This document shows, piece by piece, positions 1-64,000 of a stretch of DNA of 64,000 bases (position 1 is its first letter; every line of letters begins with the position of its first letter). The position numbers and the translations under genes were made by a program. The DNA lies in the NCBI RefSeq assembly GCF_965223285.1, contig NZ_OZ244997.1, positions 3,919,150 to 3,983,149 on the forward strand. Reading direction: 5' to 3'. This DNA is from Candidatus Leptofilum sp. GTDB lineage: Bacteria; Chloroflexota; Anaerolineae; Promineifilales; Promineifilaceae. The notes below the pieces were generated by a model that searched no databases, was not told where the DNA came from, and worked only from the letters and a program-made list of their open reading frames with translations.

Positions 1-1
1 T

Positions 2-697
2 GCAGAAGATGAACGGTGGCTAGGTAAACTGGTCATTGGGGTTTTGGTTTCGCTAGCTTCTTTTTTGATTTTGCCAGGATTTTTGCTATCTGGCTACATG
101 GTGGGGATCACCCGCAATGTGATGAATGGTAAGAAACGGCCGCTTCCCGAATGGGAAGATTTAGGCACACTTTTTATGGATGGACTGTCCATTGTGGTGG
201 CATCCATCGTGTACACATTGCCATTTTGGCTACTCACCTGCATCGCCTTTATCACTACCATCGGCTTTGGCGGCCTCAGCGAAGCCACTCAAATTAGTGA
301 AGATGCTGTGGCGGCGGGCATTTTGGCCACGTGGGGTCTCATTGGCTGCCTCTTTATCATTTTCATGCTGGCCTTCTTCTTTATCAGCCCAGCCATTGTG
401 ATTCAGTACGTGCGCGAAGGCAACCTGAGTGCCTGCTTCCGCTTTGGCGAAGTGCTGGGCATCGTGCGCGACAATTTTGGCGATATTCTCATTGCTGGGC
501 TGACGCCATTTGCTGCCAGCTTGGTGCTTTCTATTGTGGTAACCGCCTTAAACGCGATCATTTGCATAGGGACAGTTATTGGGTTTCTGTTGAGCTTTGT
601 GATGGGTCCCTACCTGGCGGCCGTAACTGGCCATCTCTACGGTCAAATTGCGAGCAAAATTGGCGGCACCCCACCTGCCGAAAAGTTTGCAGCGTAG
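2..697 (+). CDS. DUF4013-like polytopic membrane protein (5' end runs off the window)
   Basis: The frame is open from base 2 (AEDERWLGKLVIG...) and continuous with track ORF 44..697. It has a GYMVGITRNVMNG..RPLPEWEDLG motif plus several hydrophobic helices. The family assignment is from memory only. Confidence 0.55.
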   Translation, partial: AEDERWLGKLVIGVLVSLASFLILPGFLLSGYMVGITRNVMNGKKRPLPEWEDLGTLFMDGLSIVVASIVYTLPFWLLTCIAFITTIGFGGLSEATQISEDAVAAGILATWGLIGCLFIIFMLAFFFISPAIVIQYVREGNLSACFRFGEVLGIVRDNFGDILIAGLTPFAASLVLSIVVTALNAIICIGTVIGFLLSFVMGPYLAAVTGHLYGQIASKIGGTPPAEKFAA

Positions 698-706
698 TGT
701 AAACTT

Positions 707-769
707 AAACTTCAAAAGTCTTATAGATAGCTTGCCCAGTGCTGGCAGTTATCAAGACTTTTGAAGTTT
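707..769. repeat. Perfect 16-bp inverted repeat AAACTTCAAAAGTCTT / AAGACTTTTGAAGTTT (CAAAAGTCT hairpin family)
   Basis: Arms at 707-722 and 754-769, read directly. It lies just 3' of the DUF4013-like gene. Confidence 0.8.
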
Positions 770-782
770 CTGGCAAATAAAA

Positions 783-816
783 GAGAACGGCGCACCTTGG
801 GAGGATGCGCCGTTCT
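783..816 (-). terminator. Intrinsic terminator of the minus-strand ECF operon
   Basis: Stem AGAACGGCGCA (783-793) pairs with TGCGCCGTTCT (806-816). On the minus strand it is followed by CTTTTATTT. Confidence 0.6.
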
Positions 817-845
817 GTTGAGAGGGAAGAGGGACAAAAAACCAG

Positions 846-1916
846 CTATTCAGCTAGGTTTTCTTTATCTGGAAGGGTGTCGAGTACGGCCGTAATCTTA
901 TCCTGATTCAGCGGGGCGGGGGCGGCAACCAATGGGTACTCCCGCGTACCAAATTTTGTGAGTGCCGTCGCGCCCAGTCCCAAGAACACAATCAGCAGCC
1001 AAATCAAGCTCTCGCCAATGACAAATGGAATTGCGCCCAAAAAGCCAATGCCAAATGTAATAGCGGCCGTTCCCAGTGCGGTTGTGATCGCCCGGTTACG
1101 GACGTTCATGTTCAGTCGCCGTGCCAAAAAGCCGCCCACAATGTTGCCTACGGTAAACCAGCCCAAAAAGCCAGCGGCCACCATCGCCAATATCATTACC
1201 CCAATTAGTGGATAGCCAAGCAAGCCTAGCCCACACAACAGAATAAGGGGAATAGAGATTAGGGCAAGCGTCACGGCGACAAACGGCATTGAAAAGGTGG
1301 TAAGCAGGCCAATGGCACCGCTGGCAATGGGCCGTGTGCGCAATGTGTTTTCAATGCGCTGCATCGGTTGTGGTATCAAAGAAGCTGCCGCAAAGGCAAG
1401 CAAACCAAACAATACAGACCGGGCAATTGCTGCGGCCGTTCCGCCCAGGATTCTTTGTAAAAGTGGCGGTTCTTCTATTTCAACTTCAACCATTGGCCCT
1501 GGATTAAACTCCAAATCGCTTAAAAAGTTTTCTAGCTGAACGGGAATTTCTACATTCAAGTTGGTACAGCTCACGCTGCCGTCACCTGTGGAAGCCCCAT
1601 TAAAGAGAACGCAATCGCCGTTGAGAACGGCCGTTTCGCTCATGTGCAAATCCCCGTTAAAGAGGACCACATCTCCGTTAACAGTCCCGGAAATTGTTGC
1701 CGTGCCGTTGAAAAGAACGATGTCTCCATTAACACGGCCGTCTTCATTCAATTCAAAATCTTCATCAAACAGCACCACGTCGCCGTAAACAACATTGTCG
1801 TCATCTACTTCCCGCTGTGCCGATGGCGCAGCCAAGGCCACGCTTGTGGGCACAACCAGAAGCAGCAAAAGAGCAAGAACCCATAAAAGTCGGCGTTGTG
1901 TTTTTACTCGTTGCAT
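846..1916 (-). CDS. Exported protein with bactofilin-like beta-helix repeats and a C-terminal multi-TM anchor
   Basis: Signal peptide (LLWVLALLLLLVVPTSVALA). It carries 4-5 copies of NGD[VIC]VLFNG, then about 5 hydrophobic helices. It starts 2 nt after the anti-sigma gene stop. Confidence 0.6.
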   Translation of the reverse strand: MQRVKTQRRLLWVLALLLLLVVPTSVALAAPSAQREVDDDNVVYGDVVLFDEDFELNEDGRVNGDIVLFNGTATISGTVNGDVVLFNGDLHMSETAVLNGDCVLFNGASTGDGSVSCTNLNVEIPVQLENFLSDLEFNPGPMVEVEIEEPPLLQRILGGTAAAIARSVLFGLLAFAAASLIPQPMQRIENTLRTRPIASGAIGLLTTFSMPFVAVTLALISIPLILLCGLGLLGYPLIGVMILAMVAAGFLGWFTVGNIVGGFLARRLNMNVRNRAITTALGTAAITFGIGFLGAIPFVIGESLIWLLIVFLGLGATALTKFGTREYPLVAAPAPLNQDKITAVLDTLPDKENLAE

Positions 1917-1918
1917 TT

Positions 1919-2566
1919 TTAACTATTACCTCGTACAGAAACGGCCGTTGTTTGGTTAACCAACTGGCGGTAAACACCATTCCAGACAAAAACTGTTCCG
2001 GCCAAAACCAGCAGCCACCCAACAATCGCTGGTTGCTGCACAATCAACTCCCCAAGCCCTTTAAACAAAGCACCAGAAATAACCCCAACCAGTCGCACCG
2101 CCTGCGCCCACACTTGCTGAACAGAGTCAATAAAAGCAGGTTCGCTAATGACGGGTACGATTGTGTTAGCTGCCCAAACCACCAGCAAAATCGGCAATAT
2201 GCCGCTGAACAGCAGCAGCACATAAATAATGCTGATGGCCCAGAGCCGGGCGCGACGGCTCGGCAGCAGAGCGACCGTTCTTTGGGTAAACCCGGCCGCT
2301 GGACTTAGCATTGGGGCTTGCCGAAACAGCGTGTCGATGGCCAAAATGGCGTGCCACTCCTGGCGGCAGGCAGGACACGCCCGCAGGTGAGATTCCAGCT
2401 CAGTTTGTTCCTCAGCTGCAAGCTCACCATCGAGCGCGTCCATCATCAACGTGTGAAATCTTTCGTGTTCCATAATTTGCTCCATCATTCTTGTTTCAGA
2501 TTTTGAATATGCAGGTTCATTTGCCTGCACCGCCAGCCGAAACAACTTGCTGGCGACTATTACCAA
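1919..2566 (-). CDS. Anti-sigma factor, zf-HC2 type
   Basis: HLRACPACRQEW zinc-finger motif followed by TM helices, directly downstream of the ECF sigma gene. The track start is TTG; an alternative ATG start lies at 2488 (MMEQIMEHERF). Confidence 0.7.
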   Translation of the reverse strand: MVIVASKLFRLAVQANEPAYSKSETRMMEQIMEHERFHTLMMDALDGELAAEEQTELESHLRACPACRQEWHAILAIDTLFRQAPMLSPAAGFTQRTVALLPSRRARLWAISIIYVLLLFSGILPILLVVWAANTIVPVISEPAFIDSVQQVWAQAVRLVGVISGALFKGLGELIVQQPAIVGWLLVLAGTVFVWNGVYRQLVNQTTAVSVRGNS

Positions 2567-3539: not shown

Positions 3540-3703
3540 AGTAAGAAAATCCGGATGGCTCCGTTAACGGCCGTTATGAGGGTTATCAGTAAACGGTAAT
3601 CAGTAATCAGTTAAACCGATTACGGAATACCGATCACTGATTACCGAATTTGGGTGGAACCGCGACGCCATCGCCCCAAACAGGGTGGTGGCGTTTTTAT
3701 TTT
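3540..3703 (+). promoter_or_regulatory. T-box leader for thrS copy 1, with terminator/antiterminator
   Basis: GGGTGGAACCGCG at 3652-3664 matches the conserved T-box AGGGUGGNACCGCG. The terminator stem CGCCATCGCCC (3666-3676) pairs with GGGTGGTGGCG (3683-3693), including two G-U pairs, and is followed by TTTTTATTTT. TGGG (3650-3653) could pair with CCCA (3675-3678) to form the antiterminator. A candidate ACC specifier sits at 3615-3617 in a hairpin loop. The 5' boundary is uncertain. Confidence 0.7.
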
Positions 3704-3780: not shown

Positions 3781-5610
3781 ATGTCGCAACAAAACGGCGT
3801 ACCGTACGCCGAATCAGAACTTTACAAAATCCGGCATTCGGCCGCGCATGTGCTGGCGGAAGCCGTATTGGAATTTTACCCAGAAGCCAAGTTGGCCATC
3901 GGCCCGCCTATTGAGGATGGCTACTATTATGATTTCGATCTGGGCAAAGATGAGAATGACAAGCCAATCACATTTTCACCGGAAGACTTAGAGAAAATCG
4001 AAGCCAGAATGAAGCAGCTTTTGAAAAAGAACGCCAAGTTCGAGAAATCTTCCATGACGATTGAGGAAGCCAAGCAATTTTTTGCGGGTCAACCTTACAA
4101 ACTAGAACTAATTGAAGAATTAGCAGCCGGAAAAGTGGATGAAAATGGCAATCCCATTAGCGAGCCAGTGAGTGAAGTGGGCATTTACACGCAGCGCGAA
4201 TTTGTGGATTTGTGTCGTGGCCCGCACGTGGCTTTTACAAAGAAGATTAAAGCCAATGCGGCGAAGTTGTTACGCACGGGTGGGGCATATTGGCGCGGTG
4301 ATGAGAAACGGCCGCAATTACAGCGCATCTACGGCACGGCCTGGCACAACCGAATTGAGTTGGAAGAACATTTGAAGCTGCTGGAAGAAGCCAAAGCGCG
4401 CGACCACCGGCGGCTGGGCAAGCAGTTGGGGCTGTTCCACTTGTCGCAGTTGGTGGGGTCGGGCTTGCCGCTGTGGCTGCCCAAGGGTGCCATTTTGCGC
4501 GAGAATTTGGAGGGCTTTTTGCGCCAGGCACAGCTTGAGCGTGGCTACCTGCCGGTGATTACGCCACACATCGGCAAGCTGGATTTGTACATCACCAGCG
4601 GCCATTATCCATACTACAAAGAGAGCCAGTACACGCCCATTGACGTGGATGATGAAAAGTTCATGCTAAAGCCGATGAACTGCCCGCACCACATCGAAAT
4701 CTACAAGAGTGAGCCGCACAGCTACCGGGATTTGCCGCTGCGCCTGGCGGAGTTTGGCACGGTGTACCGCTATGAGCAAAGCGGTGAGCTAAATGGCCTG
4801 ACGCGGGTGCGCGGCTTTACGGTGGACGATTCACACCTTTTTGTGACGCCAGAGCAGCTAGAAGAGGAGTTCATCGGCGTGGTGGATTTGATTCAGCATG
4901 TGTTTAACACGATGGGCTTTTCTGATTTTCGGGCGCGGCTGGGCACGAACGATGCCGACAGCGACAAATATGCCGGAACGCCGCAGATGTGGCAGCAGGG
5001 CGTTGCCGCTATCAAGCAAGCGGCCGACAAGGTAGGGATGCGCTACACGGTGGAAGAGGGCGAAGCAGCCTTTTATGGCCCGAAGCTGGACTTCATTTTC
5101 CGGGATGTGCTAAAGCGAGAGTGGCAGTTGGGCACGGTGCAGGTGGACTTTTTGCTGCCGGAGCGGTTCGACTTGGAATACATGGGTGAAGATGGGCAGA
5201 AACATCGGCCGGTGATGATTCATCGGGCACCGTTTGGCAGCATGGAGCGGTTTGTGGGCATTTTGATTGAGCATTTCAACGGATCCTTCCCACTGTGGCT
5301 GGCACCGGTGCAGGTGGTGATGGTACCAATTACGGACCGCCATGTGCCATATGCAAACAAGGTGGCGGCAGAGTTGCGGGCGGCCGGGATGCGGGTGGAG
5401 GTTGATGCTAGCAACGGCCGTATGAATGCCAAAATCCGTAATGCCCAGCTGCAAAAAGTGCCGTACATGCTCGTCGTTGGTGACAAGGAAGAGGAAGCCA
5501 ACGCCGTGGCCGTGCGCACGCGCGACAACGAAGATCGCGGCGCGGTTTCCGTCGCCGATTTCAAAACCCAGGCCACTACCTTAATCACTACCAAGTCGAT
5601 GGAATTATGA
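3781..5610 (+). CDS. thrS: Threonine--tRNA ligase, copy 1 (editing + class II catalytic + anticodon-binding domains; no TGS domain)
   Basis: RHSAAHVLAEA (HxxxH), DLCRGPH, AYWRGDEKRPQLQRIYGTAW, KPMNCPHH, VMIHRAPFGSMERF. RBS GGAGGAAGC precedes the ATG. Confidence 0.95.
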   Translation: MSQQNGVPYAESELYKIRHSAAHVLAEAVLEFYPEAKLAIGPPIEDGYYYDFDLGKDENDKPITFSPEDLEKIEARMKQLLKKNAKFEKSSMTIEEAKQFFAGQPYKLELIEELAAGKVDENGNPISEPVSEVGIYTQREFVDLCRGPHVAFTKKIKANAAKLLRTGGAYWRGDEKRPQLQRIYGTAWHNRIELEEHLKLLEEAKARDHRRLGKQLGLFHLSQLVGSGLPLWLPKGAILRENLEGFLRQAQLERGYLPVITPHIGKLDLYITSGHYPYYKESQYTPIDVDDEKFMLKPMNCPHHIEIYKSEPHSYRDLPLRLAEFGTVYRYEQSGELNGLTRVRGFTVDDSHLFVTPEQLEEEFIGVVDLIQHVFNTMGFSDFRARLGTNDADSDKYAGTPQMWQQGVAAIKQAADKVGMRYTVEEGEAAFYGPKLDFIFRDVLKREWQLGTVQVDFLLPERFDLEYMGEDGQKHRPVMIHRAPFGSMERFVGILIEHFNGSFPLWLAPVQVVMVPITDRHVPYANKVAAELRAAGMRVEVDASNGRMNAKIRNAQLQKVPYMLVVGDKEEEANAVAVRTRDNEDRGAVSVADFKTQATTLITTKSMEL

Positions 5611-5757: not shown

Positions 5758-7551
5758 ATGTTTGAACAAGAAAATTATGAACAATCCCATCTGTACAAGC
5801 TGCGGCATACGGCCGCACATGTTTTGGCGCAGGCGGTGCTGGAACTGTACCCACAGGCGAAGCTGGGTATCGGCCCACCGATTGCGGACGGATTTTATTA
5901 TGATTTTGATTTAGGTGTGGATGGAAACGGCCGTTCCCAAACGTTCCACCCCGACGACCTGCCCAAACTAGAAAAGCGGATGCGGCAAATCATCGTCGAA
6001 AAACATCCGCTGGTTTACGAGGAAGTTTCTGCCAAAGAGGTGCGCCAGCGGCTGGCCGACCAGCCGTACAAGCTGGAACTGATCGACGAGCTGGCCGCCA
6101 AAGGCGAGCAAATCAGCCTGTACCGGCACGACAGCTTTGTCGATTTGTGTCGCGGGCCGCACGTGGCCGACACGGGCAAAATTCCTGCCGCTGGGCTCAA
6201 ATTGATGAGCATTGCGGGAGCGTACTGGCGTGGGGATGAGAAACGGCCGCAGCTTCAGCGCATCTACGGCACGGCCTGGCCCAGCAAAAAAGCGCTAAAA
6301 AACCACCTGGCAATGCTGGAAGAAGCTAAAAAGCGCGACCATCGCCGCTTGGGCCGCGAGCTGGAAATCTTCATTTTGGATGAGGATGTTGGCCCTGGCC
6401 TGCCGCTATGGCTGCCCAACGGCAACATTTTGCGCGAGGAGTGCGTGAAGCTGGCCAACGAGATGGAGGATAAAGCGGGCTACGTGCGCGTCGCCACGCC
6501 GCACATTGCCAAAGAGTCACTTTACCTGCAAAGCGGCCATCTGCCCTACTACGAAGACGAAATGTACCCGGTGATGGAGCGGGACGGCAGCAAATATTAT
6601 CTCAAGCCGATGAACTGCCCCTTCCACCACAAAATTTATGCCAGCAAGCCGCGCAGCTACCGCGACCTGCCCTTGCGACTGAGCGAATACGGCATGGTGT
6701 ACCGCTACGAGCAGAGCGGCACACTGATGGGGCTGCTGCGGGTGCGCAGCATCGAACAAAATGATGCCCACATTTACTGCGCCGAAAGCCAGATCGAAGA
6801 CGAATTTATGGGCGTGGTGGATTTGTACCGCAGCTATTTCGATCTGTTTGGCATTGAAAAGTACGTGATGCGCCTGAGCAAACACAGCCCGGACAAGCTG
6901 GGCGTGAAGTACGTGGACAACGGCCGTATGTGGCTCAAAGCCGAGCGCATCATCCGGGAAACGATGTTGAAGTATGATGTGCCATTTGTGGAAGCGGAGG
7001 ACGAAGCTGCGTTCTACGGCCCCAAAATTGACGTGCAGATTTGGAGCGCCATCGGCCGCGAGTTCTCGTTGGCGACGAACCAGCTTGATTTTGGCGTGCC
7101 GCCCCGCTTTGACCTGACGTTTACGAACGCGCAGGGCGAATTGGAGACGCCGTGGTGCATTCATCGCGCGCCACTCGGCGCACATGAACGGTTTATCGGC
7201 TTCTTGATTGAGCATTACGCAGGTAACTTCCCGGTTTGGCTGGCGCCAGAGCAGGTGCGGGTGATTCCAATCACGGACGGGCAAAATGAATATGCCCAGC
7301 AGGTAGCTGCGCAATTAAAAGCAGCTGGCGTGCGCGCCCAGGCAATGTTAGAAAGTGACCGGATGCAGGCCAAAATCCGAGCGGCACAGCAGATGAAGGT
7401 GCCGTACATGCTGATTGTGGGTGAACAAGAGGCGGCGGCTGGTACGGTATCGCTGCGCAAGCGGGATGGCTCGCGGCAAAACGGGCTGTCGCTGTCGGCG
7501 TTTGAGGCTATAGTATTGGATAAAATTGCTCAGCGAGATGCTGTTTTGTAG
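5758..7551 (+). CDS. thrS: Threonine--tRNA ligase, divergent copy 2
   Basis: Same domain order and motifs as copy 1: RHTAAHVLAQA, DLCRGPH, KPMNCPFHH, CIHRAPLGAHERF. By eye it is roughly half identical to copy 1. RBS GGAG lies 8 nt upstream of the ATG. Confidence 0.93.
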   Translation: MFEQENYEQSHLYKLRHTAAHVLAQAVLELYPQAKLGIGPPIADGFYYDFDLGVDGNGRSQTFHPDDLPKLEKRMRQIIVEKHPLVYEEVSAKEVRQRLADQPYKLELIDELAAKGEQISLYRHDSFVDLCRGPHVADTGKIPAAGLKLMSIAGAYWRGDEKRPQLQRIYGTAWPSKKALKNHLAMLEEAKKRDHRRLGRELEIFILDEDVGPGLPLWLPNGNILREECVKLANEMEDKAGYVRVATPHIAKESLYLQSGHLPYYEDEMYPVMERDGSKYYLKPMNCPFHHKIYASKPRSYRDLPLRLSEYGMVYRYEQSGTLMGLLRVRSIEQNDAHIYCAESQIEDEFMGVVDLYRSYFDLFGIEKYVMRLSKHSPDKLGVKYVDNGRMWLKAERIIRETMLKYDVPFVEAEDEAAFYGPKIDVQIWSAIGREFSLATNQLDFGVPPRFDLTFTNAQGELETPWCIHRAPLGAHERFIGFLIEHYAGNFPVWLAPEQVRVIPITDGQNEYAQQVAAQLKAAGVRAQAMLESDRMQAKIRAAQQMKVPYMLIVGEQEAAAGTVSLRKRDGSRQNGLSLSAFEAIVLDKIAQRDAVL

Positions 7552-7564
7552 GATACGGCCGTTG

Positions 7565-7612
7565 TTGACAATGAATCTGTGATAGATGTATACTGCATAC
7601 ATCTAAAGATCG
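7565..7612 (+). promoter_or_regulatory. Sigma70-like promoter with an overlapping palindromic operator for vapBC
   Basis: TTGACA (7565-7570), an 18-nt spacer, then TATACT (7589-7594). A 9-bp inverted repeat TAGATGTAT (7583-7591) / ATACATCTA (7597-7605) overlaps the -10 element. Confidence 0.55.
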
Positions 7613-7638
7613 CCGCAATGGTCAAACGGAGCAAGCAA

Positions 7639-7923
7639 ATGACAGAAAAAATGGTGCGAACACAGGTTTATTTACCGCAAGATATTTACGAAAAGCTAAA
7701 ATCCCGCGCCGATGAGGAAGGCATTACGATGGCTACCCAAATTCGGGAAGCGTTGGCTGAGTATGTGGTGGAGCAGCCAGAAGAGAAGGAGGGACACGTT
7801 CTCACCGAGGATGATCCCATCTGGCAGCTCATCGGCATTGGCAAAGGTGGCCCTCCGGATGGCTCGGTTAACCATGACAAATATATCTACACCAGAGATT
7901 GGGACCCAGAGGATGATGCATGA
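7639..7923 (+). CDS. vapB: Ribbon-helix-helix (CopG/VapB-type) antitoxin
   Basis: MVRTQVYLPQDIYEKLKSRADEEGITMATQIREALAEYV. GGAG lies 7 nt before the ATG at 7639; alternative starts are 7579, 7618 and 7651. There is a 4-nt ATGA overlap with the PIN gene. Confidence 0.8.
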   Translation: MTEKMVRTQVYLPQDIYEKLKSRADEEGITMATQIREALAEYVVEQPEEKEGHVLTEDDPIWQLIGIGKGGPPDGSVNHDKYIYTRDWDPEDDA

Positions 7924-8333
7924 ATCTTTTTGTAGACAGCAGCGGTTGGATAGCACTCTTTGGTGATAGAGATAAGTTTCATCAGCGCGCTGTGGACGCC
8001 TACCGGAGCTTAAAAAACCAGCGGCTAAATTTGCTAACTACCGATTACGTTTTTGATGAGACCGTTACCTTTTTACAGAAACATTATGGCACCGTGGTGG
8101 CCCAAAAGTGCGGGGAAGCGATTTTGAACACACCCTATATCAATCTCTTGTATCTTGACAATGAGGTTTGGCAGGCTGCTTGGGAGATGTTTCAAGCGTA
8201 TGCAGATAAGCAGTGGGCGTTTACGGACTGTACGAGCTTTATCGTGATGCAGCAACAGCTCATTTGGCAAGCGTTTAGCTTTGATCAACATTTTGTGCAA
8301 GCAGGATTTCAGCTTTGGCCAGGTAACGAGTAA
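7920..8333 (+). CDS. vapC: PIN-domain ribonuclease toxin
   Basis: N-terminal LFVDSSGW (acidic D6), DETVTF, and FTDCTS acidic residues typical of the PIN fold. Translationally coupled to the RHH gene. Confidence 0.85.
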   Translation: MNLFVDSSGWIALFGDRDKFHQRAVDAYRSLKNQRLNLLTTDYVFDETVTFLQKHYGTVVAQKCGEAILNTPYINLLYLDNEVWQAAWEMFQAYADKQWAFTDCTSFIVMQQQLIWQAFSFDQHFVQAGFQLWPGNE

Positions 8334-14587: not shown

Positions 14588-14600
14588 CAGCTTTTCCTTC

Positions 14601-14643
14601 CTCAAACATACGATTTCTCCAAGAATGAAGTCGTATGTTTGAG
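14601..14643. repeat. Intercistronic perfect 13-bp inverted repeat
   Basis: CTCAAACATACGA (14601-14613) / TCGTATGTTTGAG (14631-14643), between the two permease genes. Confidence 0.7.
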
Positions 14644-14659
14644 TCGCCATAAAGGTAAT

Positions 14660-24566: not shown

Positions 24567-24608
24567 GGCTCCATTCCATTGGAGTGCCGCAAAAAAAGGA
24601 GTAATCCC

Positions 24609-46021: not shown

Positions 46022-46228
46022 AATTAACTCCCAATTTAGTCATGGTTTTGCGTCATCAATCCTCTAAACACCATGCCTACCTTGATTGTGACATGGAATA
46101 CGGCCGTTGTGACCAACCCCGTTCTCGCTCTCATGCACCACTCAGGTTGGATTCTCTTACAAAGGGTGGTTGCCTGAGATGACTCCCTGCGTCACAATTG
46201 CGGCATCAACAATTGGGAGAGTTGCCAC

Positions 46229-52909: not shown

Positions 52910-52985
52910 GGAAATATTGTAAACAGAATGCCCCTGATTTGGAAGACTCAATCTGGGGCGGGGTGCGGTCAAAAGTTTTGTAGGA

Positions 52986-54589: not shown

Positions 54590-54709
54590 ACTATCTGCTC
54601 CTTTTGAGCCAGATGAAGAAGATAATGGCTCAATCCAAAGCAAGCATACCGAAAACAAGATGGTTGAGTTGGACGATTGGGCTACGAGAGAGGTACCGCA
54701 AGCAAATGG

Positions 54710-58071: not shown

Positions 58072-58566
58072 TTAAAATGGCAGTTCGGTACCCTGCGCCG
58101 GGCTGGTTTTCCGGCGTACCAGGGCAATGATGCCCGCGCCCAGGCCAATGAGCAGCAAGATGGGCGCGACGACAAACCAACCCAGCAGCGGCACCAATCC
58201 TCCAGCGATGAGCAGCACGGCCGTTTTCAACCCCACCTTCACCCCCTCATCCTTCGGATACAGACGGGTTTGGACGATCTGATTAATAGCTGATAGGCCA
58301 ACGGCCGTAACCGCCAGCAGCAGCAGAAAAATGATCGCCGCAATGAGGCCACCCAACTCCCCACCCTGAGAAAAGATCGCAATCAATACACCAAAAAAGA
58401 GGAAGTTCACCAGCCCAATGACAAACGAACGCCCCGGACTGTTCTTTGCCACCTGCTGCGCCCGCGCTACGCGCCCTGGCAGCAAAGCAGGCAGCAGCAC
58501 CAGCAGCGCAGCCAGCGTCCCCCAGCTAAACAAAACGATGATTGTAAGTTGTAGCCCTTCAGCCAT
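58072..58566 (-). CDS. Small polytopic membrane protein, third gene of an ECF operon
   Basis: Four hydrophobic helices, downstream of the sigma/anti-sigma pair on the same strand. Confidence 0.55.
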   Translation of the reverse strand: MAEGLQLTIIVLFSWGTLAALLVLLPALLPGRVARAQQVAKNSPGRSFVIGLVNFLFFGVLIAIFSQGGELGGLIAAIIFLLLLAVTAVGLSAINQIVQTRLYPKDEGVKVGLKTAVLLIAGGLVPLLGWFVVAPILLLIGLGAGIIALVRRKTSPAQGTELPF

Positions 58567-58671: not shown

Positions 58672-59214
58672 CTAATCAGATGTAAACATGAGGCGGTTGC
58701 CTGCTAGCCAAACGACGAGTGCCAGGCCGAACAGCAACGCCCACTGTGCGGTGGGCAAATCAAAGATGAGATTGGGCAAGGCAGGCTGCTGCCAAACGGC
58801 CGTTACCCCCGCCCAAAATTCATTCAACCAACTCAGTGTGGACAGTTGCAAGGTAGCAAACCAATCTATGGCGATGGCACGGCCGTTTCCCCACCAAGCC
58901 AGCAGCGACGACCACACATTCCCTAGCAAAAGCAGGGCAATGGCTACCTGCCCCAGCATCAAGCCCCACAGCCAGCGCGGCAGTCGAGCAACGGCCGTTT
59001 CTTGCCCAATTTCTGCCACCACCCGCGCTGATAAATCAGTTGCCAGCGGCAGCTCCGGCAGGGCATCCAGGTCGCTAAACAACGCTTCCAGCTCGGCTAG
59101 CCGCGCCCGCGCCTCTGGCGAATTAGCCAGATGGGCTTCAATAGCCTGCCGAGTTTGCTCATCCAGCGTGCCATCTAGATATTCATGCAGTAAATCTTCG
59201 TCAAACTCTTTCAT
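58672..59214 (-). CDS. Anti-sigma factor (no Cys zinc finger)
   Basis: LLHEYLDGTLDEQTRQAIEAHLANSPEARARLAELE followed by TM helices. It starts 2 nt after the sigma gene stop. Confidence 0.7.
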   Translation of the reverse strand: MKEFDEDLLHEYLDGTLDEQTRQAIEAHLANSPEARARLAELEALFSDLDALPELPLATDLSARVVAEIGQETAVARLPRWLWGLMLGQVAIALLLLGNVWSSLLAWWGNGRAIAIDWFATLQLSTLSWLNEFWAGVTAVWQQPALPNLIFDLPTAQWALLFGLALVVWLAGNRLMFTSD

Positions 59215-59216: not shown

Positions 59217-59798
59217 TTAAGCACTCTCTTTCATCTTCTCTGCCAGCATCTTTCTTGCCCGAAACAGATCGCTTTTGACGCTGCTGAGCGGCCGTTCCAT
59301 CATCGCAGCCATTTCATCATAGCTCAGCTCCTGAAAATGGCGCAGCTCAATGGCGACACGATAGCGCGGCGGCAGAGCCAAAATCGCCTGATGCAACTGG
59401 GTCGATTGTTCGGCGCGAACCAACGTTTGTTCTGGCGATGGGGCTGATTGCGCCCAATCATCCAGGCTCACGGGCTGGTCATTCCGCGACATATCGGCGG
59501 CCAATAACTGCGTTTTGGCTCTGGATGATTCCAGCCAGTTTAAACATAAATTGGTGGTGATGCGCTTGATCCAAGGGGCAAACGGCCGTCCCAATTCAAA
59601 CCTGTCCAACGCCCGATACGCCCGCAAAAACGCTTCCTGGGCAGCATCCTCCGCCTCTACCCGTCGACCCAACAGACGATACGCGGTGTTGAACACGGCC
59701 GTTTGGTAACGACGCACCAGCTCTCCATACGCGGCAGCGCTGGTTTCGTCTTTCTGCCTGGCCTGTTGCAGCAGGTGCTGCTCATCTGTCAGCGTCAT
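59217..59798 (-). CDS. ECF sigma-70 factor
   Basis: LVRRYQTAVFNTAYRLLGRRVEAEDAAQEAFLRAY and IELRHFQELSYDEMAAMMERPLSSVKSDLFRARK. Start set at the ATG at 59798 (the track start is 59846). Confidence 0.88.
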   Translation of the reverse strand: MTLTDEQHLLQQARQKDETSAAAYGELVRRYQTAVFNTAYRLLGRRVEAEDAAQEAFLRAYRALDRFELGRPFAPWIKRITTNLCLNWLESSRAKTQLLAADMSRNDQPVSLDDWAQSAPSPEQTLVRAEQSTQLHQAILALPPRYRVAIELRHFQELSYDEMAAMMERPLSSVKSDLFRARKMLAEKMKESA

Positions 59799-60009
59799 GG
59801 TTTGCGTCCTACCAGAGTGTACCGGAAACTGCCCAAAAAGTTGCAAAGCGCAAGAAAGTACCAGAATTTATACGAAGGCACGAAGAATGAAAGGAACGAA
59901 GCGTCTGTTTATCAGGCCTCCTTTGTTTCTCTGTTCCTTCGTTTCTTCGTCTAAAATATTTTACCTTTTCATGCTTCACCAAACGGCCGTTCCCCGGTAC
60001 AATTCCTGC

Positions 60010-60747
60010 ATGTTCACCTATCTAAACCCAGCGTCCCGTATTTGGCTTATCGCCTTGCTCATCATGTGGGCTGCGCTGCTGTTTGGTGGGTTCCTGTTTG
60101 GTTCCGCCGATTCCAGCCAACGAATGCCCAAATGGGCCCGACTCAGTTCCTCTGCCGTACTGGTGCTGGCTGGCTGGAGCTGGTTTTTCATTACCCGCCA
60201 AAACGAGGTCAACAGCTTTGTGCTGTGGCTGGCCATCGGCATGACCTTTGGCTTTCTGGGCGATCTGTTTATGGCAGGCGTCCTGCCCGGCGGCCGGAAC
60301 GTGTTGGGCGGCATGGCCGCCTTTGGCCTCGGCCACGTTGCCTACATCATCGGCATTTGGCGGTTTGGCAACCAGATTGGTTTAACCGACGGTACGACCC
60401 GCTGGGGCAGCCTCATTGTTTGGTGGATGATTGGGGCTGCCGCCTGGTATTTTGTCGTTTATCGTGGCCAGCAGCCCACCACGCTGCACCAAGCCACGCT
60501 GCCCTATGCGCTGCTGCTGGCCAGCACGGCGGGCGTAGCGACCAGCCTGGCAATTCAGCAAGGTCAATTTACTTGGCTGGCCATCGGAGCTGCCCTCTTC
60601 CTCATCAGCGATTTGATCATTGCCACTCAACTGTTTAACGGCACCAGCTTTTACTTAATTGGGGATGTGATTTGGCTTACTTATGGTCCTGGTCAGATGC
60701 TGATTGTGTTCAGTGCGGCAACGGCCGTTTCCCTCTTCGGCCAATAA
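60010..60747 (+). CDS. YhhN / lysoplasmalogenase-family membrane protein
   Basis: About 8 TM helices with FGFLGDLFM and AFGLGHVAYI motifs. The start is trimmed to the ATG at 60010. Confidence 0.7.
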   Translation: MFTYLNPASRIWLIALLIMWAALLFGGFLFGSADSSQRMPKWARLSSSAVLVLAGWSWFFITRQNEVNSFVLWLAIGMTFGFLGDLFMAGVLPGGRNVLGGMAAFGLGHVAYIIGIWRFGNQIGLTDGTTRWGSLIVWWMIGAAAWYFVVYRGQQPTTLHQATLPYALLLASTAGVATSLAIQQGQFTWLAIGAALFLISDLIIATQLFNGTSFYLIGDVIWLTYGPGQMLIVFSAATAVSLFGQ

Positions 60748-61178: not shown

Positions 61179-62129
61179 ATGTTGTCAACAATAGAAAACA
61201 CACGTCCCCTTTCATCCGTCACCACGTCTGCCAATCGTTTAGAAGATCAGGTTGGGAACACGCCGCTGATTCGCTTGTGGAATACGGCCGTTGCTCACCA
61301 CATCCCCAATACCGTTGCCATCTATGCTAAAGCAGAATGGTTTAACCCCAGCGGCTCCGTCAAAGACCGGGCTGCTCTCAATATCATCCGCACAGCCGAA
61401 GAAAATGGACAGCTAAAGCCTGGCATGACCTTGCTAGACTCAACCTCTGGCAACATGGGCATTGCTTACGCCATGCTCGGCGCGGCGCGCGGCTACCAAA
61501 TCAAGCTCACCTTACCCAGCAACGCCAGCCCCGAGCGCATCGCCATCCTCAAAGCGTACGGTGCAGAACTCATTCTTACTGATCCGCTAGAAGGTTCCGA
61601 CGGGGCGATTTTGGTAGCCCGGGAATTGGCTGCTGCCGATCCCACACTCTACTACGCGAACCAATACAACAATTCAGCTAACTGGCAGGCGCACACCAAA
61701 ACCACTGCCCCAGAAATTTGGCAGCAAACAGACGGCCAAATCACTCATTTTGTGGCCGGTTTAGGCACCAGCGGCACTTTCACTGGTACCACCCGTCGCT
61801 TGAAGCAGTTTAATCCGAACATTAGCACGGTGGCCATGCAGCCGGATGGCCCTTTTCATGGCCTTGAAGGGCTAAAGCATATGCCTTCTGCGCTCAAGCC
61901 AGGTATTTATGACGAGGGCGTGCCAGACGAGCAGGTAACTGTTCGTACCGAAGACGCTCACAAAATGGCACACTTTTTGGCGCGTAATGAAGGACTGTTT
62001 GTGGGCATTTCTGCCGCCGCGGCCGTGGTTGCCAGCCTGAACGTGGCCAAAACGTTAGATGAAGGCGTTGTCGTGACCATCTTGCCCGACAATGGCTTCA
62101 AATATTTGAGCGATACTTTGTGGCAATAA
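61179..62129 (+). CDS. cysM: CysM-type cysteine synthase (PLP-dependent)
   Basis: GNTPLIRL, NPSGSVKDRAA (PLP Lys), DSTSGNMGIA, GLGTSGTFTG. Confidence 0.9.
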   Translation: MLSTIENTRPLSSVTTSANRLEDQVGNTPLIRLWNTAVAHHIPNTVAIYAKAEWFNPSGSVKDRAALNIIRTAEENGQLKPGMTLLDSTSGNMGIAYAMLGAARGYQIKLTLPSNASPERIAILKAYGAELILTDPLEGSDGAILVARELAAADPTLYYANQYNNSANWQAHTKTTAPEIWQQTDGQITHFVAGLGTSGTFTGTTRRLKQFNPNISTVAMQPDGPFHGLEGLKHMPSALKPGIYDEGVPDEQVTVRTEDAHKMAHFLARNEGLFVGISAAAAVVASLNVAKTLDEGVVVTILPDNGFKYLSDTLWQ

Positions 62130-62162
62130 GAATATCTGCGAAATCTGTGGTTAGAAGAAAAT

Positions 62163-62597
62163 ATGCTGACATTAAGTAAGGAGCTTCACGAGGCAATTAA
62201 AGCGCACGGGCAGGCATCCTATCCGTTTGAGGGTTGTGGCTTGTTGCTGGGGCAGGCTGGGCCAGGCAAAAATGTGGTGCAGCAGATTCGCCCAATGGAG
62301 AATGTGTGGCCCGACGAAGCTGAAAAACCGATTCGCTTCAGCATCGACCCCAATGCGTGGCAGCAGGTGGAGCTAGAAGCAATGATGGCTGGTCTGGACG
62401 TGATTGGCATTTTCCACAGCCACCCAGATGATGTGCCGGTGGCTTCGCCGCGTGATTTAGCTTGGGCTAGCTGGCCGGGCTATTCCTATTTGATTACCCA
62501 GGTGTTAAAAGGCGAACCGACCTACAGCCAGTCATGGCAGCTGGCAGCAGATCGGTCTGGCTTTTTTGAAGAAGAGATTGTTGAAACTGATAACTAA
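62163..62597 (+). CDS. mec: JAMM/MPN+ metalloprotease (Mec+-like)
   Basis: E..G ... HSHPDDVPVASPRD (HxHx7Sx2D). Confidence 0.85.
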   Translation: MLTLSKELHEAIKAHGQASYPFEGCGLLLGQAGPGKNVVQQIRPMENVWPDEAEKPIRFSIDPNAWQQVELEAMMAGLDVIGIFHSHPDDVPVASPRDLAWASWPGYSYLITQVLKGEPTYSQSWQLAADRSGFFEEEIVETDN

Positions 62598-62610
62598 AGG
62601 AGAGTAAACC

Positions 62611-62886
62611 ATGCCTACCATTCGTATTCCTACCCCGCTACGGCCGTATTCTGGCAACAACGCTACCGTCACAGTCAATGGCAATGATGTGAGCAGTGCC
62701 CTAAATGACCTGACACAGCAGTTCCCAGACCTGCGCCAACATCTGTTTGAGGCAGATGAGCTACGCAGCTTTGTCAACATCTACCTGAATCAGGAAGATG
62801 TGCGTTACTTAGATGGCCCAGAAACGGCCGTTGCCGACAACGACACCTTAATGATTATTCCCTCCATTGCCGGTGGCCAAGGTTAA
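62611..62886 (+). CDS. cysO: ThiS/MoaD-fold sulfur carrier CysO, with a GG-QG C-terminus
   Basis: IRIPTPLRPYSG....V...G..V...L..L......L......LR.FVNIYLNQEDVRYL........D.D.L.IIPSIAGGQG resembles mycobacterial CysO. Confidence 0.85.
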   Translation: MPTIRIPTPLRPYSGNNATVTVNGNDVSSALNDLTQQFPDLRQHLFEADELRSFVNIYLNQEDVRYLDGPETAVADNDTLMIIPSIAGGQG

Positions 62887-62904
62887 AGGGATGGAGAAAA
62901 CGAG

Positions 62905-63360
62905 ATGAGCACTCCGAAAGAACGAAAAGTAGATCACTCGGCTTTGCGAGTGAATCAGGCATTTATTATTAGCTTAAGCATTCTGGCGTTCGTGCTGGAC
63001 GCGGTTTGGCTGGCGGCGTTTGTAGGGTTGGTGATGCTGGTGGGAACGGCCGTTCCCCGCCTATCTCTCTTCAAACGCATTTATCAACACGGGCTGCGCC
63101 CCACCGGGCTGGTAAAGCCAGACGTGATTGTTGATAACCCGGAACCGCATCGCTTTGCTCAGGGCTTCGGTGGCGTCGTGGTCGCCCTGGCGGTAATTGC
63201 GCTGGCGGCTGGATTGCCCCTGCTTGGCTGGGGATTGGTCTGGCTGGTGGTTACGCTGGCGGCTCTCAACCTGTTCCTTGGCTTCTGCGCTGGCTGCTTT
63301 GTTTACTACCAACTGAACAAGCTGGGCTTGCCCGGCTTTCGGGTGAAACCGATTCGGTAA
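62905..63360 (+). CDS. DUF4395-like membrane protein
   Basis: VNQAFII...LVGTAVP.LSLFKRIY...FAQGFG....CAGCFVYYQL pattern and 4 TM helices. Confidence 0.6.
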   Translation: MSTPKERKVDHSALRVNQAFIISLSILAFVLDAVWLAAFVGLVMLVGTAVPRLSLFKRIYQHGLRPTGLVKPDVIVDNPEPHRFAQGFGGVVVALAVIALAAGLPLLGWGLVWLVVTLAALNLFLGFCAGCFVYYQLNKLGLPGFRVKPIR

Positions 63361-63427
63361 TCAGTGAGCCAGTAATCACTGTTCAGTTTACTGACCTACT
63401 GAAAACTGATCTCTGAATACTTCAAAA

Positions 63428-63835
63428 ATGATAGAAAGATTACTCATCACAACGATACTCATCATGCTTGGCACGACCGCCTACGCTACCTTTAAGCGGC
63501 GGCATGTGCGGGTGTTGGGCGATATGGAAACGGCTACTTTGGCAGGCTCAGCGCAAGCTATGCCCCAAACGCCCACTATCCTTTACTTTGCCAGCGATAG
63601 CTGCGCCGCCTGCCCCAGCCAGGCACGCTATTTGGAACAACTTTTAGCCGAGTGGCATAATGAGTTGGTCGTGCAAAAAATTGATACCGAGTTGGAACCG
63701 GAAACGGCCGAAAAATACGGCGTTTTCACCTTGCCCACCACGATTCTTATTGACCAGCAAGGCGACGTGCGTGAGATCAATTACGGTCTTACCCATACGC
63801 ACAAACTCACGCAGCAAGTTGCCAACCTGGCCTAA
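63428..63835 (+). CDS. Membrane-anchored thioredoxin-like protein
   Basis: N-terminal TM helix, FASDSCAACPSQ (CxxC), and the PTTILID thioredoxin-fold cis-Pro region. Confidence 0.75.
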   Translation: MIERLLITTILIMLGTTAYATFKRRHVRVLGDMETATLAGSAQAMPQTPTILYFASDSCAACPSQARYLEQLLAEWHNELVVQKIDTELEPETAEKYGVFTLPTTILIDQQGDVREINYGLTHTHKLTQQVANLA

Positions 63836-64000
63836 AATTACATGATTAACACAAATGCTCTTGAAAACATTCAAGCAAAGATTGTAAGACTTACGCACTC
63901 GCCCTAACCAGACTACAAAAGTCTTGGGTCTAATGATGTTAATCCTTGAGAGAATAAGCGTTTTGTAGTCTTCACTGCGTAAGTCCTAGATTAAAAAGGT

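Follow-up and report, generated by a model that had tools for sequence, protein, structure and literature searches.

Why does a single eight-base palindrome, ACGGCCGT, recur about once per 600 bases along a 64,000-base stretch of bacterial chromosome (the window)? The window is ordinary housekeeping chromosome, with two tandem thrS genes, dnaB, recD2, pepA, icd, ABC transporters and extracytoplasmic function (ECF) sigma factors, and no tRNA genes were found in it. A scan with the ThrS protein places it in the Promineifilaceae (Chloroflexota), with a metagenome-assembled genome (MAG) of Candidatus Leptofilum as the closest match (94% amino acid identity); NCBI puts this family in the class Ardenticatenia, and many of the matching MAGs are labelled Anaerolineae. 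An initial annotation of the window described the word as a highly iterated palindrome (HIP) like HIP1 of cyanobacteria. The word is very probably a DNA watermark of the HIP type that is read by a protein. The single window to which that annotation was confined proved too narrow a frame, as the feature spans the whole Chloroflexota family and its phages, in flank dialects that the window does not display.

The window contains exactly 106 copies of ACGGCCGT (1.66/kb; 1,656 per Mb). About 105 had been counted before, with correct coordinates except for a missed copy at 1734, and the GC content, previously put at about 55%, is 52.6%. The number of copies expected by chance is 0.86 from 100 dinucleotide-preserving shuffles (standard deviation 0.89, maximum 4), which corresponds to an observed/expected (O/E) ratio of about 123. 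Markov models of order 0, 1, 2 and 3 expect 1.2, 1.0, 1.9 and 4.0 copies (O/E 27-106); the initial annotation had estimated one to two. ACGGCCGT is the commonest of all 8-mers in the window, the next-ranked 8-mers all overlap it, and the runner-up palindromic 8-mer has 5 copies. A maximal-order (order 6) Markov model, by contrast, expects 94 copies (O/E 1.12), because the embedded 7-mers ACGGCCG (131 copies) and CGGCCGT (123 copies) hold the same signal. A ratio near 1 in this model had been proposed as a refutation of the excess and was formally obtained, but the test is invalid for a word whose sub-words all belong to the signal. Relatives of the window were pooled with their CGGCCG sites masked. 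They were found by the ThrS scan, in which each GTDB species was represented by a single genome, and the analysis covered about 20 kb per relative beside the 64 kb of the window genome. Long-read assemblies are available for several of them, including JADJXK01 (Candidatus Leptofilum proximum), JADJUV01 (Candidatus Trichofilum aggregatum), JADJSZ01 (Candidatus Hadersleviella danica) and the CBDCW* MAGs. In these 431.6 kb, 602 copies of ACGGCCGT are observed and 7.3 are expected from an order-3 model, an 83-fold excess.

The CGGCCG hexamer occurs 171 times in the window, 106 times within the full 8-mer, 42 times with one preferred flank and 23 times with neither. The 8-mer is weakly extended outward, with A at position -1 in 65% of the sites and T at position +8 in 61%, and the 10-mer AACGGCCGTT is found in 43 copies. 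The palindrome is 8-10 bp long at 97 of the 106 sites, and the information content is approximately zero past position -2. The longer palindromes reported earlier, a 14-bp GGAACGGCCGTTCC at 25786-25799 and 51540-51553 and a 16-bp GGGAACGGCCGTTCCC at 63042-63057, are all present at those positions. One-mismatch variants are enriched only at the outer positions, where GCGGCCGT, ACGGCCGC, ACGGCCGA and TCGGCCGT occur 13, 13, 12 and 4 times in the window, whereas each internal one-mismatch variant has 0-2 copies, that is, background. In the pooled relatives, the outer variants have O/E ratios of 5.3 (G flank) and 7.6 (T flank). A different hexamer, TGGCCA, is the second commonest palindromic hexamer in the window (47 copies and about 17 expected, as estimated from composition); its surplus could be driven by codons (CTG-GCC-A) or be tied to decay of the CGGCCG core.

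The raw count alone, together with the order-6 ratio of 1.12, an artefact of the embedded 7-mers, could be taken to mean that the copies stem from some dispersed repeat or small mobile element, such as a repetitive extragenic palindrome (REP) or a miniature inverted-repeat transposable element (MITE), or that they are a by-product of base, codon or amino acid usage. The 56-nt flanks of the sites are 30% identical to one another, compared with 29% for random positions (maximum 57%), and no information lies beyond position -2, so the copies are not one dispersed element; that they all belong to one such element had been named in advance as the outcome fatal to the HIP1-like reading. All three reading frames and both gene strands contain sites, as does the DNA between genes; 98 are coding (92% within open reading frames, ORFs) and 8 are intergenic, and those in conserved genes are in frame and without indels. 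REPs, bacterial interspersed mosaic elements (BIMEs) and MITEs are extragenic, imperfect palindromes of 20-40 nt or longer with hairpin potential and homologous flanks, and the ACGGCCGT sites differ from them in location, length and flanks. Composition provides for only 0.86-4 copies by shuffles and Markov orders 0-3, and codon usage predicts the word in 14% of the T-A-V tripeptides discussed below, in contrast to the 98% found. An origin from a dispersed repeat or from composition is already refuted by these tests. A role as a terminator or hairpin was also rejected, as far as sequence alone can indicate, since the palindromes are 8-10 bp long, loopless and mostly intragenic.

The force that maintains the word acts on DNA, overrides codon usage and reshapes protein sequence, as the initial annotation had proposed in part by placing the constraint on DNA and not on protein. 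Site density is 1.67/kb within ORFs and 1.52/kb between them and is about the same on both gene strands. With two further ORFs added, the word is read as ACG-GCC-GTn (T-A-V) at 62 sites, as nAC-GGC-CGT (x-G-R) at 24 and as CGG-CCG (R-P) at 12, with 8 sites intergenic; all three frames are thus used, as described before, although unequally. The recurrence of T-A-V in the encoded proteins is also borne out, with 60 such tripeptides in the window compared with 7.9 expected from composition (7.6-fold), whereas its five permutations occur 6-16 times each. Of these 60 tripeptides, 59 are encoded by ACGGCCGT. Likewise, 24 of the 28 [N/D/H/Y]-G-R tripeptides use the word, though CGT is a minor arginine codon. 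Among the pooled relatives, near-cognates that are synonymous (ACHGCCGT) reach only 0.23-0.44 of expectation, while non-synonymous ones are found at about 1. The near-complete use of the word by T-A-V and x-G-R and the depletion of near-cognates mean that almost every cheap opportunity has been taken and that protein sequence has been pulled toward the word. Replacements of this kind are visible in protein alignments. N-A-V or G-A-V has become T-A-V in the thrS product of L018 (Candidatus Hadersleviella danica), Q-A-V and M-G-V have become T-A-V in the second thrS product of L011, and in eight species grouped with one another, the window among them, N-G-R has replaced S-N-R, N-A-R or S-E-R.

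The core is shared across the family, and its flanks are not. CGGCCG is hyper-abundant (1.4-5.3/kb) in 26 of 26 loci with a ThrS identity of at least 80%, and no hyper-abundance was found in loci more distant than that. Twenty of the 26 loci have the flank dialect (A)A-CGGCCG-T(T) (A-type). A monophyletic trio, Candidatus Trichofilum aggregatum L016, L017 and L027, instead has the NotI site GCGGCCGC in the form (C)G-CGGCCG-C(G) (G-type) and contains 28-49 copies of GCGGCCGC per 21 kb with 0-1 copies of ACGGCCGT. The flank is A or T in L019, A or G in L010 and any base except C in L018. The looser flanks belong to basal lineages, and a 5' C is disfavoured in every lineage. The outer-base specificity has thus changed during the history of the Promineifilaceae. 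The G-type clade reads its word mostly as GCG-GCC-GCn, and A-A-A tripeptides number 65 compared with 13 expected, 56 of the 65 being encoded by GCGGCCGC; the inflation of a different tripeptide under a changed dialect confirms that causation runs from DNA to protein. In orthologues shared between A-type and G-type loci, ACGGCCGT and GCGGCCGC do not stand at matching positions in either direction, so that the two site sets appear to have accumulated independently, although the shared genes are few and these data are thin. Conversion of one dialect into the other in place was rejected on the same thin data, because orthologous positions carry no swapped word. The lone ACGGCCGT of L017, a G-type locus with 28 copies of GCGGCCGC, lies in thrS at alignment column 375, where no other species has a site.

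The opposite state was met in unrelated bacteria. CGGCCG is wholly absent from the approximately 20-kb loci L022, L049, L050, L053, L056, L059, L060 and L061-L064, which comprise an Aggregatilineales MAG at 60.5% GC, Candidatus Electronema cable bacteria and Armatimonadota/Fervidibacter; in L022, no copy is found where about 17 are expected. These loci seem to avoid the word as a restriction target of the EagI type, the reverse of the situation in the Promineifilaceae.

To follow individual sites between species, 857 reciprocal-best orthologue pairs from the window and the 26 loci were analysed with codons threaded onto protein alignments. In A-type pairs whose proteins are at least 70% identical, a site is the identical 8-mer in 71-77% of cases, compared with 13-25% for control 8-mers; below 70% protein identity, the values are 37% and 6%. 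This comparison had been recommended as a check on the initial annotation, and its result supports it. Of 445 cases with a conserved T-A-V, 434 retain the word, while control adjacent four-fold codons keep both third positions in 20-35%, and tripeptides encoded by the motif are themselves conserved at 0.82 compared with an average of 0.57. Sites, once present, thus outlast other sequence by far. Their loss is all or none. Orthologous 8-mers that are not conserved differ at a mean of 3.1 positions (1.8-2.3 in controls), and states with one or two mismatches are rare, as expected if near-cognates are short-lived.

Conservation of the hexamer depends on its flanks. It amounts to 77%/55% where both flanks are the preferred ones, to 67%/42% where a single one is, and to 25%/19% where neither is, and control hexamers have 28.5%/12.8%. 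What is constrained is therefore the 7-mer ACGGCCG, on whichever strand it lies; the EagI hexamer by itself is unprotected, and the palindromic 8-mer consists of two overlapping 7-mer units. The one-mismatch variants had been regarded as nascent or decaying copies. However, no more than 3-5% of the half-flanked sites (ACGGCCGN or NCGGCCGT) have a full site as their orthologue, and half-flanked sites are stable states, not decaying copies.

The spacing of the sites is close to random. Gaps between the 8-mers in the window are Poisson-like, with a coefficient of variation (CV) of 0.98 and no evenness, the gaps between the 148 7-mer units have a CV of 0.91, which is not significant, and no regular spacing or periodicity was found within the 64 kb. 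The longest gap (3,487 bp), which starts after the site at 27544-27551, is not significant either. The stretch at 27.5-31.0 kb, which includes the dnaB region, was considered as a foreign island; this was rejected, since the gap has P = 0.25 and the stretch holds five half-flanked 7-mer sites. Only short distances depart from the Poisson pattern. In the pooled A-type loci, including the window, gaps below 50 bp are depleted approximately 2-fold (21 observed and 40 expected for 8-mers; 37 and 80 for 7-mer units), and the depletion is confined to gaps below 50-100 bp. This short-range exclusion could be due to the footprint of a protein, to repair tracts or to closely spaced repeats being unstable.

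The word is also dense in phages. IMG/VR was scanned for two AACGGCCGTT words 60-150 bp apart, and the recovered viral contigs, one of only 46% GC, have ACGGCCGT as by far their dominant palindrome at 1.2-3.7/kb. The word was met at about 2/kb in at least 14 viral contigs. In 14 such loci (121 kb), 260 ACGGCCGT sites were counted, a density biased upward because the loci were chosen for at least two sites, and 104 of their 108 T-A-V tripeptides use the word. By PHROGs assignment, the genes with the word encode terminase and portal in L103 and L237, terminase and capsid protease in L116, portal and capsid protease in L091, terminase and a ParB-fused methyltransferase in L244, tape measure in L242, and portal and protease in L248. 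The densest locus met was L244 (IMGVR_UViG_3300030606_000015), with 105 CGGCCG in 13.4 kb (7.8/kb) and A (112) and G (64) flanks that resemble the dialect of the host locus L010. A viral scan for three GCGGCCGC words returned mainly high-GC phages among the matches listed. Whatever maintains the word also acts on phage DNA, or phages exploit it.

Two of the phage loci encode ParB-fused N4/N6-type DNA methyltransferases (phrog_498) near the terminase gene, at L103:10196-11488 (-) and L244:9824-11098 (-), which are 28% identical to each other. In L103 the methyltransferase stands beside terminase and portal among the hallmark genes assigned by PHROGs, and its gene contains no ACGGCCGT. Three other viral loci have dominant palindromes of their own, CGCCGGCG in L154 (50 copies in 14.5 kb, GC 73.6%), CCCATGGG in L194 (11 copies in 1.6 kb) and GTTATAAC in L241 (13 copies in 9.1 kb), which may be further iterated palindromes of other host-phage systems.

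The density of the word in phage genes argues against an uptake-driven origin and against a live restriction target. In an uptake-driven origin, ACGGCCGT would be a DNA uptake sequence that spreads by molecular drive through a preference of the competence machinery, in the manner of the DNA uptake sequence (DUS) of Neisseria and the uptake signal sequence (USS) of the Pasteurellaceae, and the dialects would follow a co-evolving receptor. DUS dialects are reportedly treated by Frye et al. 2013, and USS and proteomes by Findlay and Redfield 2009. The density (approximately 1-2 per kb here, about 1 per kb there), the lineage-specific variants, the use of all frames and the effect on peptide composition are shared with DUS and with the USS of Haemophilus, and a recent proposal casts HIP1 itself as an uptake sequence (10.64898/2026.06.24.733823). 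DUS and USS, however, are asymmetric 9-12-nt words in one orientation, while ACGGCCGT is perfectly palindromic and its flank preferences are symmetric; the 7-mer under constraint lacks that symmetry, yet is equal on both strands by construction. Transformation is the route by which DUS and USS accumulate, and prophages and islands have few of them, whereas ACGGCCGT is at full density in phage contigs, including structural genes, and phage DNA bypasses the route of uptake and recombination. Competence is not known in the clade, and no competence genes were found in the window. An uptake sequence is therefore a very unlikely explanation.

The second possibility touched by the phage data concerns restriction. 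The core and the G-type dialect are identical to the recognition sequences of EagI (CGGCCG) and NotI (GCGGCCGC). Restriction targets are usually avoided, but no avoidance was found here, the word being hyper-abundant in host and phage alike. An active restriction enzyme of these cells therefore cannot have the sites as its targets, except where their protection is complete.

A 7-mer unit within a 10-bp symmetric context implies a sequence-specific protein. How such a protein might produce the pattern is addressed by a ratchet of methylation and repair, which is put forward tentatively, at somewhat less than an even chance. A putative solitary (restriction-less) DNA methyltransferase of the CGGCCG family would mark the core, and a putative repair or nicking reader would additionally require the 5' flank base. 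Loss of a site would then become far rarer than its chance creation, and the word would be an absorbing state in which sequences that drift into it by ordinary mutation are trapped. Cheap opportunities, synonymous or conservative, would fill over time, and a shift in the flank specificity of reader or writer would lead to a new dialect (A..T, G..C, W..W or R..Y). A methylation-guided ratchet built on embedded 7-mers has been proposed for HIP1 by Elhai, who also finds a putative cognate methyltransferase for every high-frequency cyanobacterial palindrome (PMC4390886). In the part of the Nanomotif supplement that was available, CGGCCG is methylated as 4mC and as 5mC in environmental MAGs; neither ACGGCCGT nor GCGGCCGC is among the motifs of that part, Chloroflexota are absent from it, and the MAGs with CGGCCG are unrelated. 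CGGCCG, thus reported as methylated in MAGs and avoided in several unrelated loci as restriction targets are, is a plausible methylation target.

Several observations weigh against the methylation ratchet. The 64-kb window yielded no gene for a methyltransferase, for a restriction enzyme or for a Vsr/MutH-like protein, and a motif scan of approximately 580 kb of host loci for C5 (PCQ...ENV), N4/N6 (D/N/S-PP-Y/F/W) and Vsr-like patterns returned no host candidate. The one-mismatch variants have no transition-specific signature, as transitions and transversions behave alike at every position. Positions -1 and -2 are graded (74% and 58%), which resembles a profile of binding affinity more than the discrete specificity of a methyltransferase. 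The between-species figures are pair counts that are phylogenetically non-independent, although the effect sizes are large. For HIP1, selection and not biased repair has been argued from similar conservation data (Xu et al., PMC5861425). Scan hits at 41614-42282 of the window and in L010 and L046 were rejected because they are not methyltransferases by Pfam, that of L046 being a glycoside hydrolase. The same scans over the phage loci returned only the two ParB-fused enzymes of L103 and L244.

The absence of a transition-specific signature excludes a simple Vsr-type bias of T:G repair. A Vsr/Dcm-type bias of very-short-patch (VSP) repair would correct T:G to C:G in a methylated context, as for CCWGG-related words in Escherichia coli, and it would suit the core as a plausible target of cytosine methylation. 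At position 3/6, however, all three substitutions are depleted (0.44, 0.23 and 0.34), and at positions 2 and 4 none are. The enrichment of approximately 80-120-fold is far above the effects of VSP repair on word frequency, which are modest, and an approximate Vsr-like pattern (FVHGCFWH-type, which is not a validated diagnostic) had no match in the DNA examined. VSP repair bias is accordingly disfavoured, as a highly improbable source of the word. The Dam GATC/MutH and Dcm-Vsr systems of E. coli are nevertheless models of a solitary methyltransferase combined with a site-specific repair nuclease, both reading a short palindrome genome-wide, but neither yields a 100-fold excess of an 8-mer.

The main rival of the methylation ratchet is purifying selection for a useful binding site. 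The sites would then form a selected array that a dimeric protein binds, such as a factor of the nucleoid or of chromosome structure, or they would act as a recombination signal of the Chi type, as a signal against degradation or as a mark of self, which phages copy for their own benefit. Strong conservation of the sites between species, graded information across the 10-bp palindrome and the 2-fold depletion of gaps below 50 bp, which fits a footprint or diminishing returns, all agree with such an array, and the phage density, host-like or higher, is what mimicry predicts. For HIP1, selection has been inferred from conservation (PMC5861425), and a methylation-dependent, Chi-like or uptake-like effect on transformation has been measured (10.1101/2024.09.10.611283). 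On the other hand, near-saturation (59 of 60 T-A-V, 24 of 28 x-G-R) is hard to obtain from weak per-site selection on thousands of redundant sites, the spacing beyond 50 bp is Poisson-like (CV 0.98) and not even, and no protein is known as a candidate binder. A ratchet and purifying selection cannot be told apart by comparative data alone; near-saturated synonymous opportunities and Poisson spacing favour a per-site ratchet, while exclusion below 50 bp and phage mimicry favour function. A selected array that dispenses with the ratchet is considered somewhat less likely than the ratchet itself.

The individual ACGGCCGT sites are given here without strand, followed in brackets by the tripeptide or dipeptide read and by the palindrome length where it is 10 or 12 bp; the strand of each ORF is in brackets. 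The sites at 886-893 and 1627-1634 (both T-A-V, 10 bp) and the previously missed 1734-1741 (x-G-R) lie in the ORF at 846-1916 (-), 1941-1948 (T-A-V, 10 bp) lies in 1919-2566 (-), and 3567-3574 (12 bp) is intergenic. The N-G-R reading reported earlier in both thrS copies was recovered at 5414-5421 in the first copy (3781-5610 +), a site common to 8 of 26 species, and at 5927-5934 and 6920-6927 in the second (5758-7551 +), present in 13 and 3 of 14 species, respectively. Both genes are full-length threonine-tRNA ligase genes above the TIGR00418 cut-off, arranged in tandem, and roughly half of the relatives lack the second one. Downstream, 7555-7562 is intergenic, and the ORF at 8357-9349 (+) contains 8498-8505 and 8849-8856 (T-A-V), 8938-8945 (R-P) and 9135-9142 (x-G-R, 10 bp). 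Three T-A-V sites at 9949-9956, 10090-10097 and 10351-10358 belong to 9453-10433 (-); 10895-10902 and 11285-11292 (x-G-R) and 11196-11203 (T-A-V) to 10430-11530 (-); and 11698-11705 (x-G-R) to 11587-12837 (-). The ORF at 12759-13481 (-) has 12877-12884 (T-A-V, 10 bp), 13178-13185 (R-P) and 13444-13451 (T-A-V). Single sites are found at 14157-14164 (T-A-V, 10 bp) in 13553-14650 (-), 17030-17037 (T-A-V, 12 bp) in 15874-17958 (-), 19230-19237 (x-G-R) in 18234-19253 (-) and 20030-20037 (x-G-R) in 19250-20257 (-).

The next ORF, at 20471-21061 (+), reads T-A-V at 20477-20484, 20633-20640 and 21041-21048 (the last 10 bp), and 22534-22541 is intergenic. Sites at 23371-23378 (T-A-V) and 24101-24108 (R-P) fall in 22584-24113 (-), and 24645-24652 (T-A-V), 24696-24703 (T-A-V, 10 bp) and 25574-25581 (R-P) fall in 24579-25730 (+). 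The intergenic 25789-25796 is the core of the first GGAACGGCCGTTCC palindrome. In 25846-27606 (+), 25963-25970 and 26554-26561 (both T-A-V, 10 bp) precede 27544-27551 (T-A-V), and beyond the longest gap, 31031-31038 (T-A-V, 10 bp) lies in 30482-31189 (+). Further sites are 32721-32728 (T-A-V) and 32956-32963 (R-P, 10 bp) in 32564-33169 (-); 33332-33339 (x-G-R, 10 bp) in 33268-33984 (+); 34124-34131 and 34709-34716 (x-G-R) and 34315-34322 (T-A-V, 10 bp) in 34066-34746 (+); 35020-35027 (x-G-R, 10 bp) and 35480-35487 (T-A-V) in 34849-35715 (-); and 35862-35869 (R-P), 36389-36396 (T-A-V) and 36553-36560 (x-G-R, 12 bp) in 35731-36759 (-). The pepA gene (36855-38405 +) reads T-A-V at 37524-37531 and 38133-38140, 39064-39071 (x-G-R) lies in 38550-39704 (+), and 40717-40724 (12 bp) is intergenic. 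Sites at 41046-41053 (x-G-R) and 41180-41187 (T-A-V, 10 bp) occupy 40760-41419 (+), and 41674-41681 (T-A-V, 10 bp) occupies 41614-42282 (+). The ORF at 42751-44781 (-) has three T-A-V sites of 10 bp at 43253-43260, 44318-44325 and 44471-44478, and that at 44855-46021 (-) has 44951-44958 (x-G-R), 45068-45075 (x-G-R, 10 bp) and 45957-45964 (T-A-V, 10 bp).

After the intergenic 46100-46107, five sites fall in 47074-48294 (+), namely 47113-47120 and 48211-48218 (both T-A-V, 10 bp), 47274-47281 (R-P), 47456-47463 (x-G-R) and 47914-47921 (T-A-V), and one falls in 48278-49498 (-), at 48768-48775 (T-A-V). The ORF at 49732-50307 (+) holds 49947-49954 (R-P, 10 bp) and 50188-50195 (T-A-V); 50326-51078 (+) holds 50418-50425 (R-P), 50587-50594 (T-A-V, 10 bp) and 50749-50756 (T-A-V); and 51168-52001 (+) holds 51263-51270 (R-P, 12 bp), 51471-51478 (T-A-V) and 51543-51550 (T-A-V), the core of the second GGAACGGCCGTTCC. 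Sites at 52350-52357 and 52569-52576 (T-A-V) and 52535-52542 (x-G-R) are in 52091-52972 (-), and 53323-53330 (R-P, 10 bp), 53364-53371 and 54408-54415 (both T-A-V, 10 bp), 54071-54078 (x-G-R) and 54345-54352 (T-A-V) are in 53174-54658 (-). The recD2 gene (54710-57010 -) contains 54828-54835 (T-A-V), 55449-55456 and 55860-55867 (both T-A-V, 10 bp), 56208-56215 (T-A-V, 12 bp) and 56780-56787 (x-G-R). T-A-V is read at 58217-58224 and 58301-58308 in 58072-58566 (-) and, at 10 bp, at 58796-58803 and 58991-58998 in 58672-59214 (-), which also has 58879-58886 (x-G-R). The remaining sites are 59582-59589 (R-P) and 59695-59702 (T-A-V) in 59217-59846 (-), 59983-59990 and 60721-60728 (both T-A-V, 10 bp) in 59797-60747 (+), 61284-61291 (T-A-V) in 61179-62129 (+), the intergenic 62640-62647 and 62824-62831 (both 10 bp), and 63046-63053 (T-A-V), the core of GGGAACGGCCGTTCCC, in 62905-63360 (+).

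The 42 half-flanked sites, which carry ACGGCCG on one strand only and extend from 136 to 63711, are conserved like full sites and hence are part of the feature. By the first base of the 8-mer, ACGGCCGC is at 136, 4308, 5809, 6243, 14781, 22564, 26062, 26509, 29111, 39239, 49016, 49798 and 53894; ACGGCCGA is at 8451, 12964, 18293, 22179, 26467, 29411, 29656, 30910, 53765, 55646, 57479 and 63704; GCGGCCGT is at 617, 1063, 1432, 9778, 12744, 25062, 25273, 33920, 37791, 38224, 54474, 59288 and 62019; and TCGGCCGT is at 11783, 29274, 48879 and 56382. The 23 CGGCCG hexamers with neither preferred flank, between 2292 and 60297, are probably outside the constrained feature, in keeping with their control-like conservation; their 8-mers begin at 2292, 3838, 5020, 5205, 5380, 7052, 10662, 14790, 26594, 28766, 31116, 34879, 35156, 36305, 42560, 44089, 45228, 46589, 46653, 55037, 55299, 56244 and 60290.

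Other genes of the window were noticed in passing. Just downstream of the second thrS copy, a ribbon-helix-helix gene (7579-7923 +) and a PIN-domain gene (7920-8333 +) form a pair that looks like a toxin-antitoxin module and is found here only in L007, L021 and L023. The product of 52091-52972 (-) fuses a Ham1-family (ITPase-like) domain to Effector-associated domain 7 (EAD7), which is unusual for a house-cleaning enzyme, and 48278-49498 (-) is an AlkZ-like DNA glycosylase gene. Three ECF-type sigma genes lie in the 64 kb, at 2572-3267/1919-2566 (-), 59217-59846/58672-59214 (-) and 49732-50307 (+), and two of them adjoin a zf-HC2 anti-sigma gene.

The function and origin of HIP1 have been open since 1995, and the prior evidence came from one phylum only. 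In full-text searches of a non-exhaustive library, no report of an iterated palindrome of the CGGCCG type, or of any such feature in Chloroflexota, was found, which accords with the earlier statement that the word has no described function, and no CGGCCG-type HIP is listed by Elhai 2015 (PMC4390886). The word is thus apparently an unreported second case of HIPs, outside the cyanobacteria. It is possible, though held with reserve, that HIPs are a recurrent and convergent genome-wide system with an independent origin in Chloroflexota, in which machinery that reads a 7-mer marks host and phage DNA, rewrites proteomes (T-A-V or A-A-A) and switches dialect. If so, the dialect switches within one family (A..T, G..C, W and R) would be a natural experiment in which writer and reader genes could be sought by phylogenetic co-variation, which has been impossible for HIP1 in 30 years, and clean switches of the outer bases could be paired with changes in the specificity domain of a methyltransferase or reader. 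A second system with an unrelated, GATC-free core would mean that the phenomenon does not depend on Dam-type methylation or cyanobacterial biology. It would also show that a force of this kind is able to inflate given tripeptides 5-8-fold in a proteome, and its sharing with phages would constrain the mechanism and make uptake-driven models unlikely. Promineifilaceae are abundant filamentous bacteria of activated sludge, and the word would serve as a near-diagnostic watermark for binning their contigs and for linking phages to hosts in wastewater metagenomes.

In every respect that could be tested, ACGGCCGT behaves like HIP1 and its alternates, and the HIP1-like classification of the initial annotation holds for abundance, independence of the sites, outer variants, the 7-mer unit and conservation. 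HIP1 (GCGATCGC; Robinson et al. 1995; Elhai 2015, PMC4390886; Xu et al. 2018, PMC5861425) and ACGGCCGT are both GC-rich palindromes of 8 bp. The 1,656 sites per Mb of the window fall within the 500-2,500 per Mb of HIPs, as a previous comparison of its density with HIP1 and uptake sequences had suggested, and the 80-120-fold excess falls within the 15-300-fold of HIP1. Both words occur as point sites in coding and non-coding DNA and in all frames, have one-base variants at the first and last positions (Elhai, PMC4390886), use an embedded 7-mer as the effective unit with a weak 10-mer extension, are conserved between genomes far above controls and have a central hexamer that is a classic target of methylation and restriction. 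ACGGCCGT is nevertheless not HIP1 in the strict sense. HIP1 has a CGATCG core with a GATC/Dam site and cyanobacterial hosts, whereas the core here is CGGCCG without GATC and the hosts are Chloroflexota (Promineifilaceae); the window contains a single copy of HIP1 and 6 of CGATCG. A putative cognate methyltransferase is available for HIP1 in cyanobacteria, and none was found for ACGGCCGT in the DNA examined. HIP1 site density has a periodicity of 10-90 kb (Xu et al. 2018, PMC5861425). Phages are co-marked by ACGGCCGT, and no statement on phages was found in the HIP1 papers examined. The alternate cyanobacterial HIPs include TCGATCGA, GGGATCCC, GGCGCC, rCCGGy and GCsGC (Elhai 2015, PMC4390886). 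The relation of GCGATCGC to TCGATCGA, a variant that differs in its outer bases and is restricted to a clade, is the direct parallel of that between ACGGCCGT and GCGGCCGC, except that the switch here occurs within one Chloroflexota family, with loose-flank (W, R or D) intermediates, and that the two dialects inflate different tripeptides, T-A-V for ACGGCCGT and A-A-A for GCGGCCGC.

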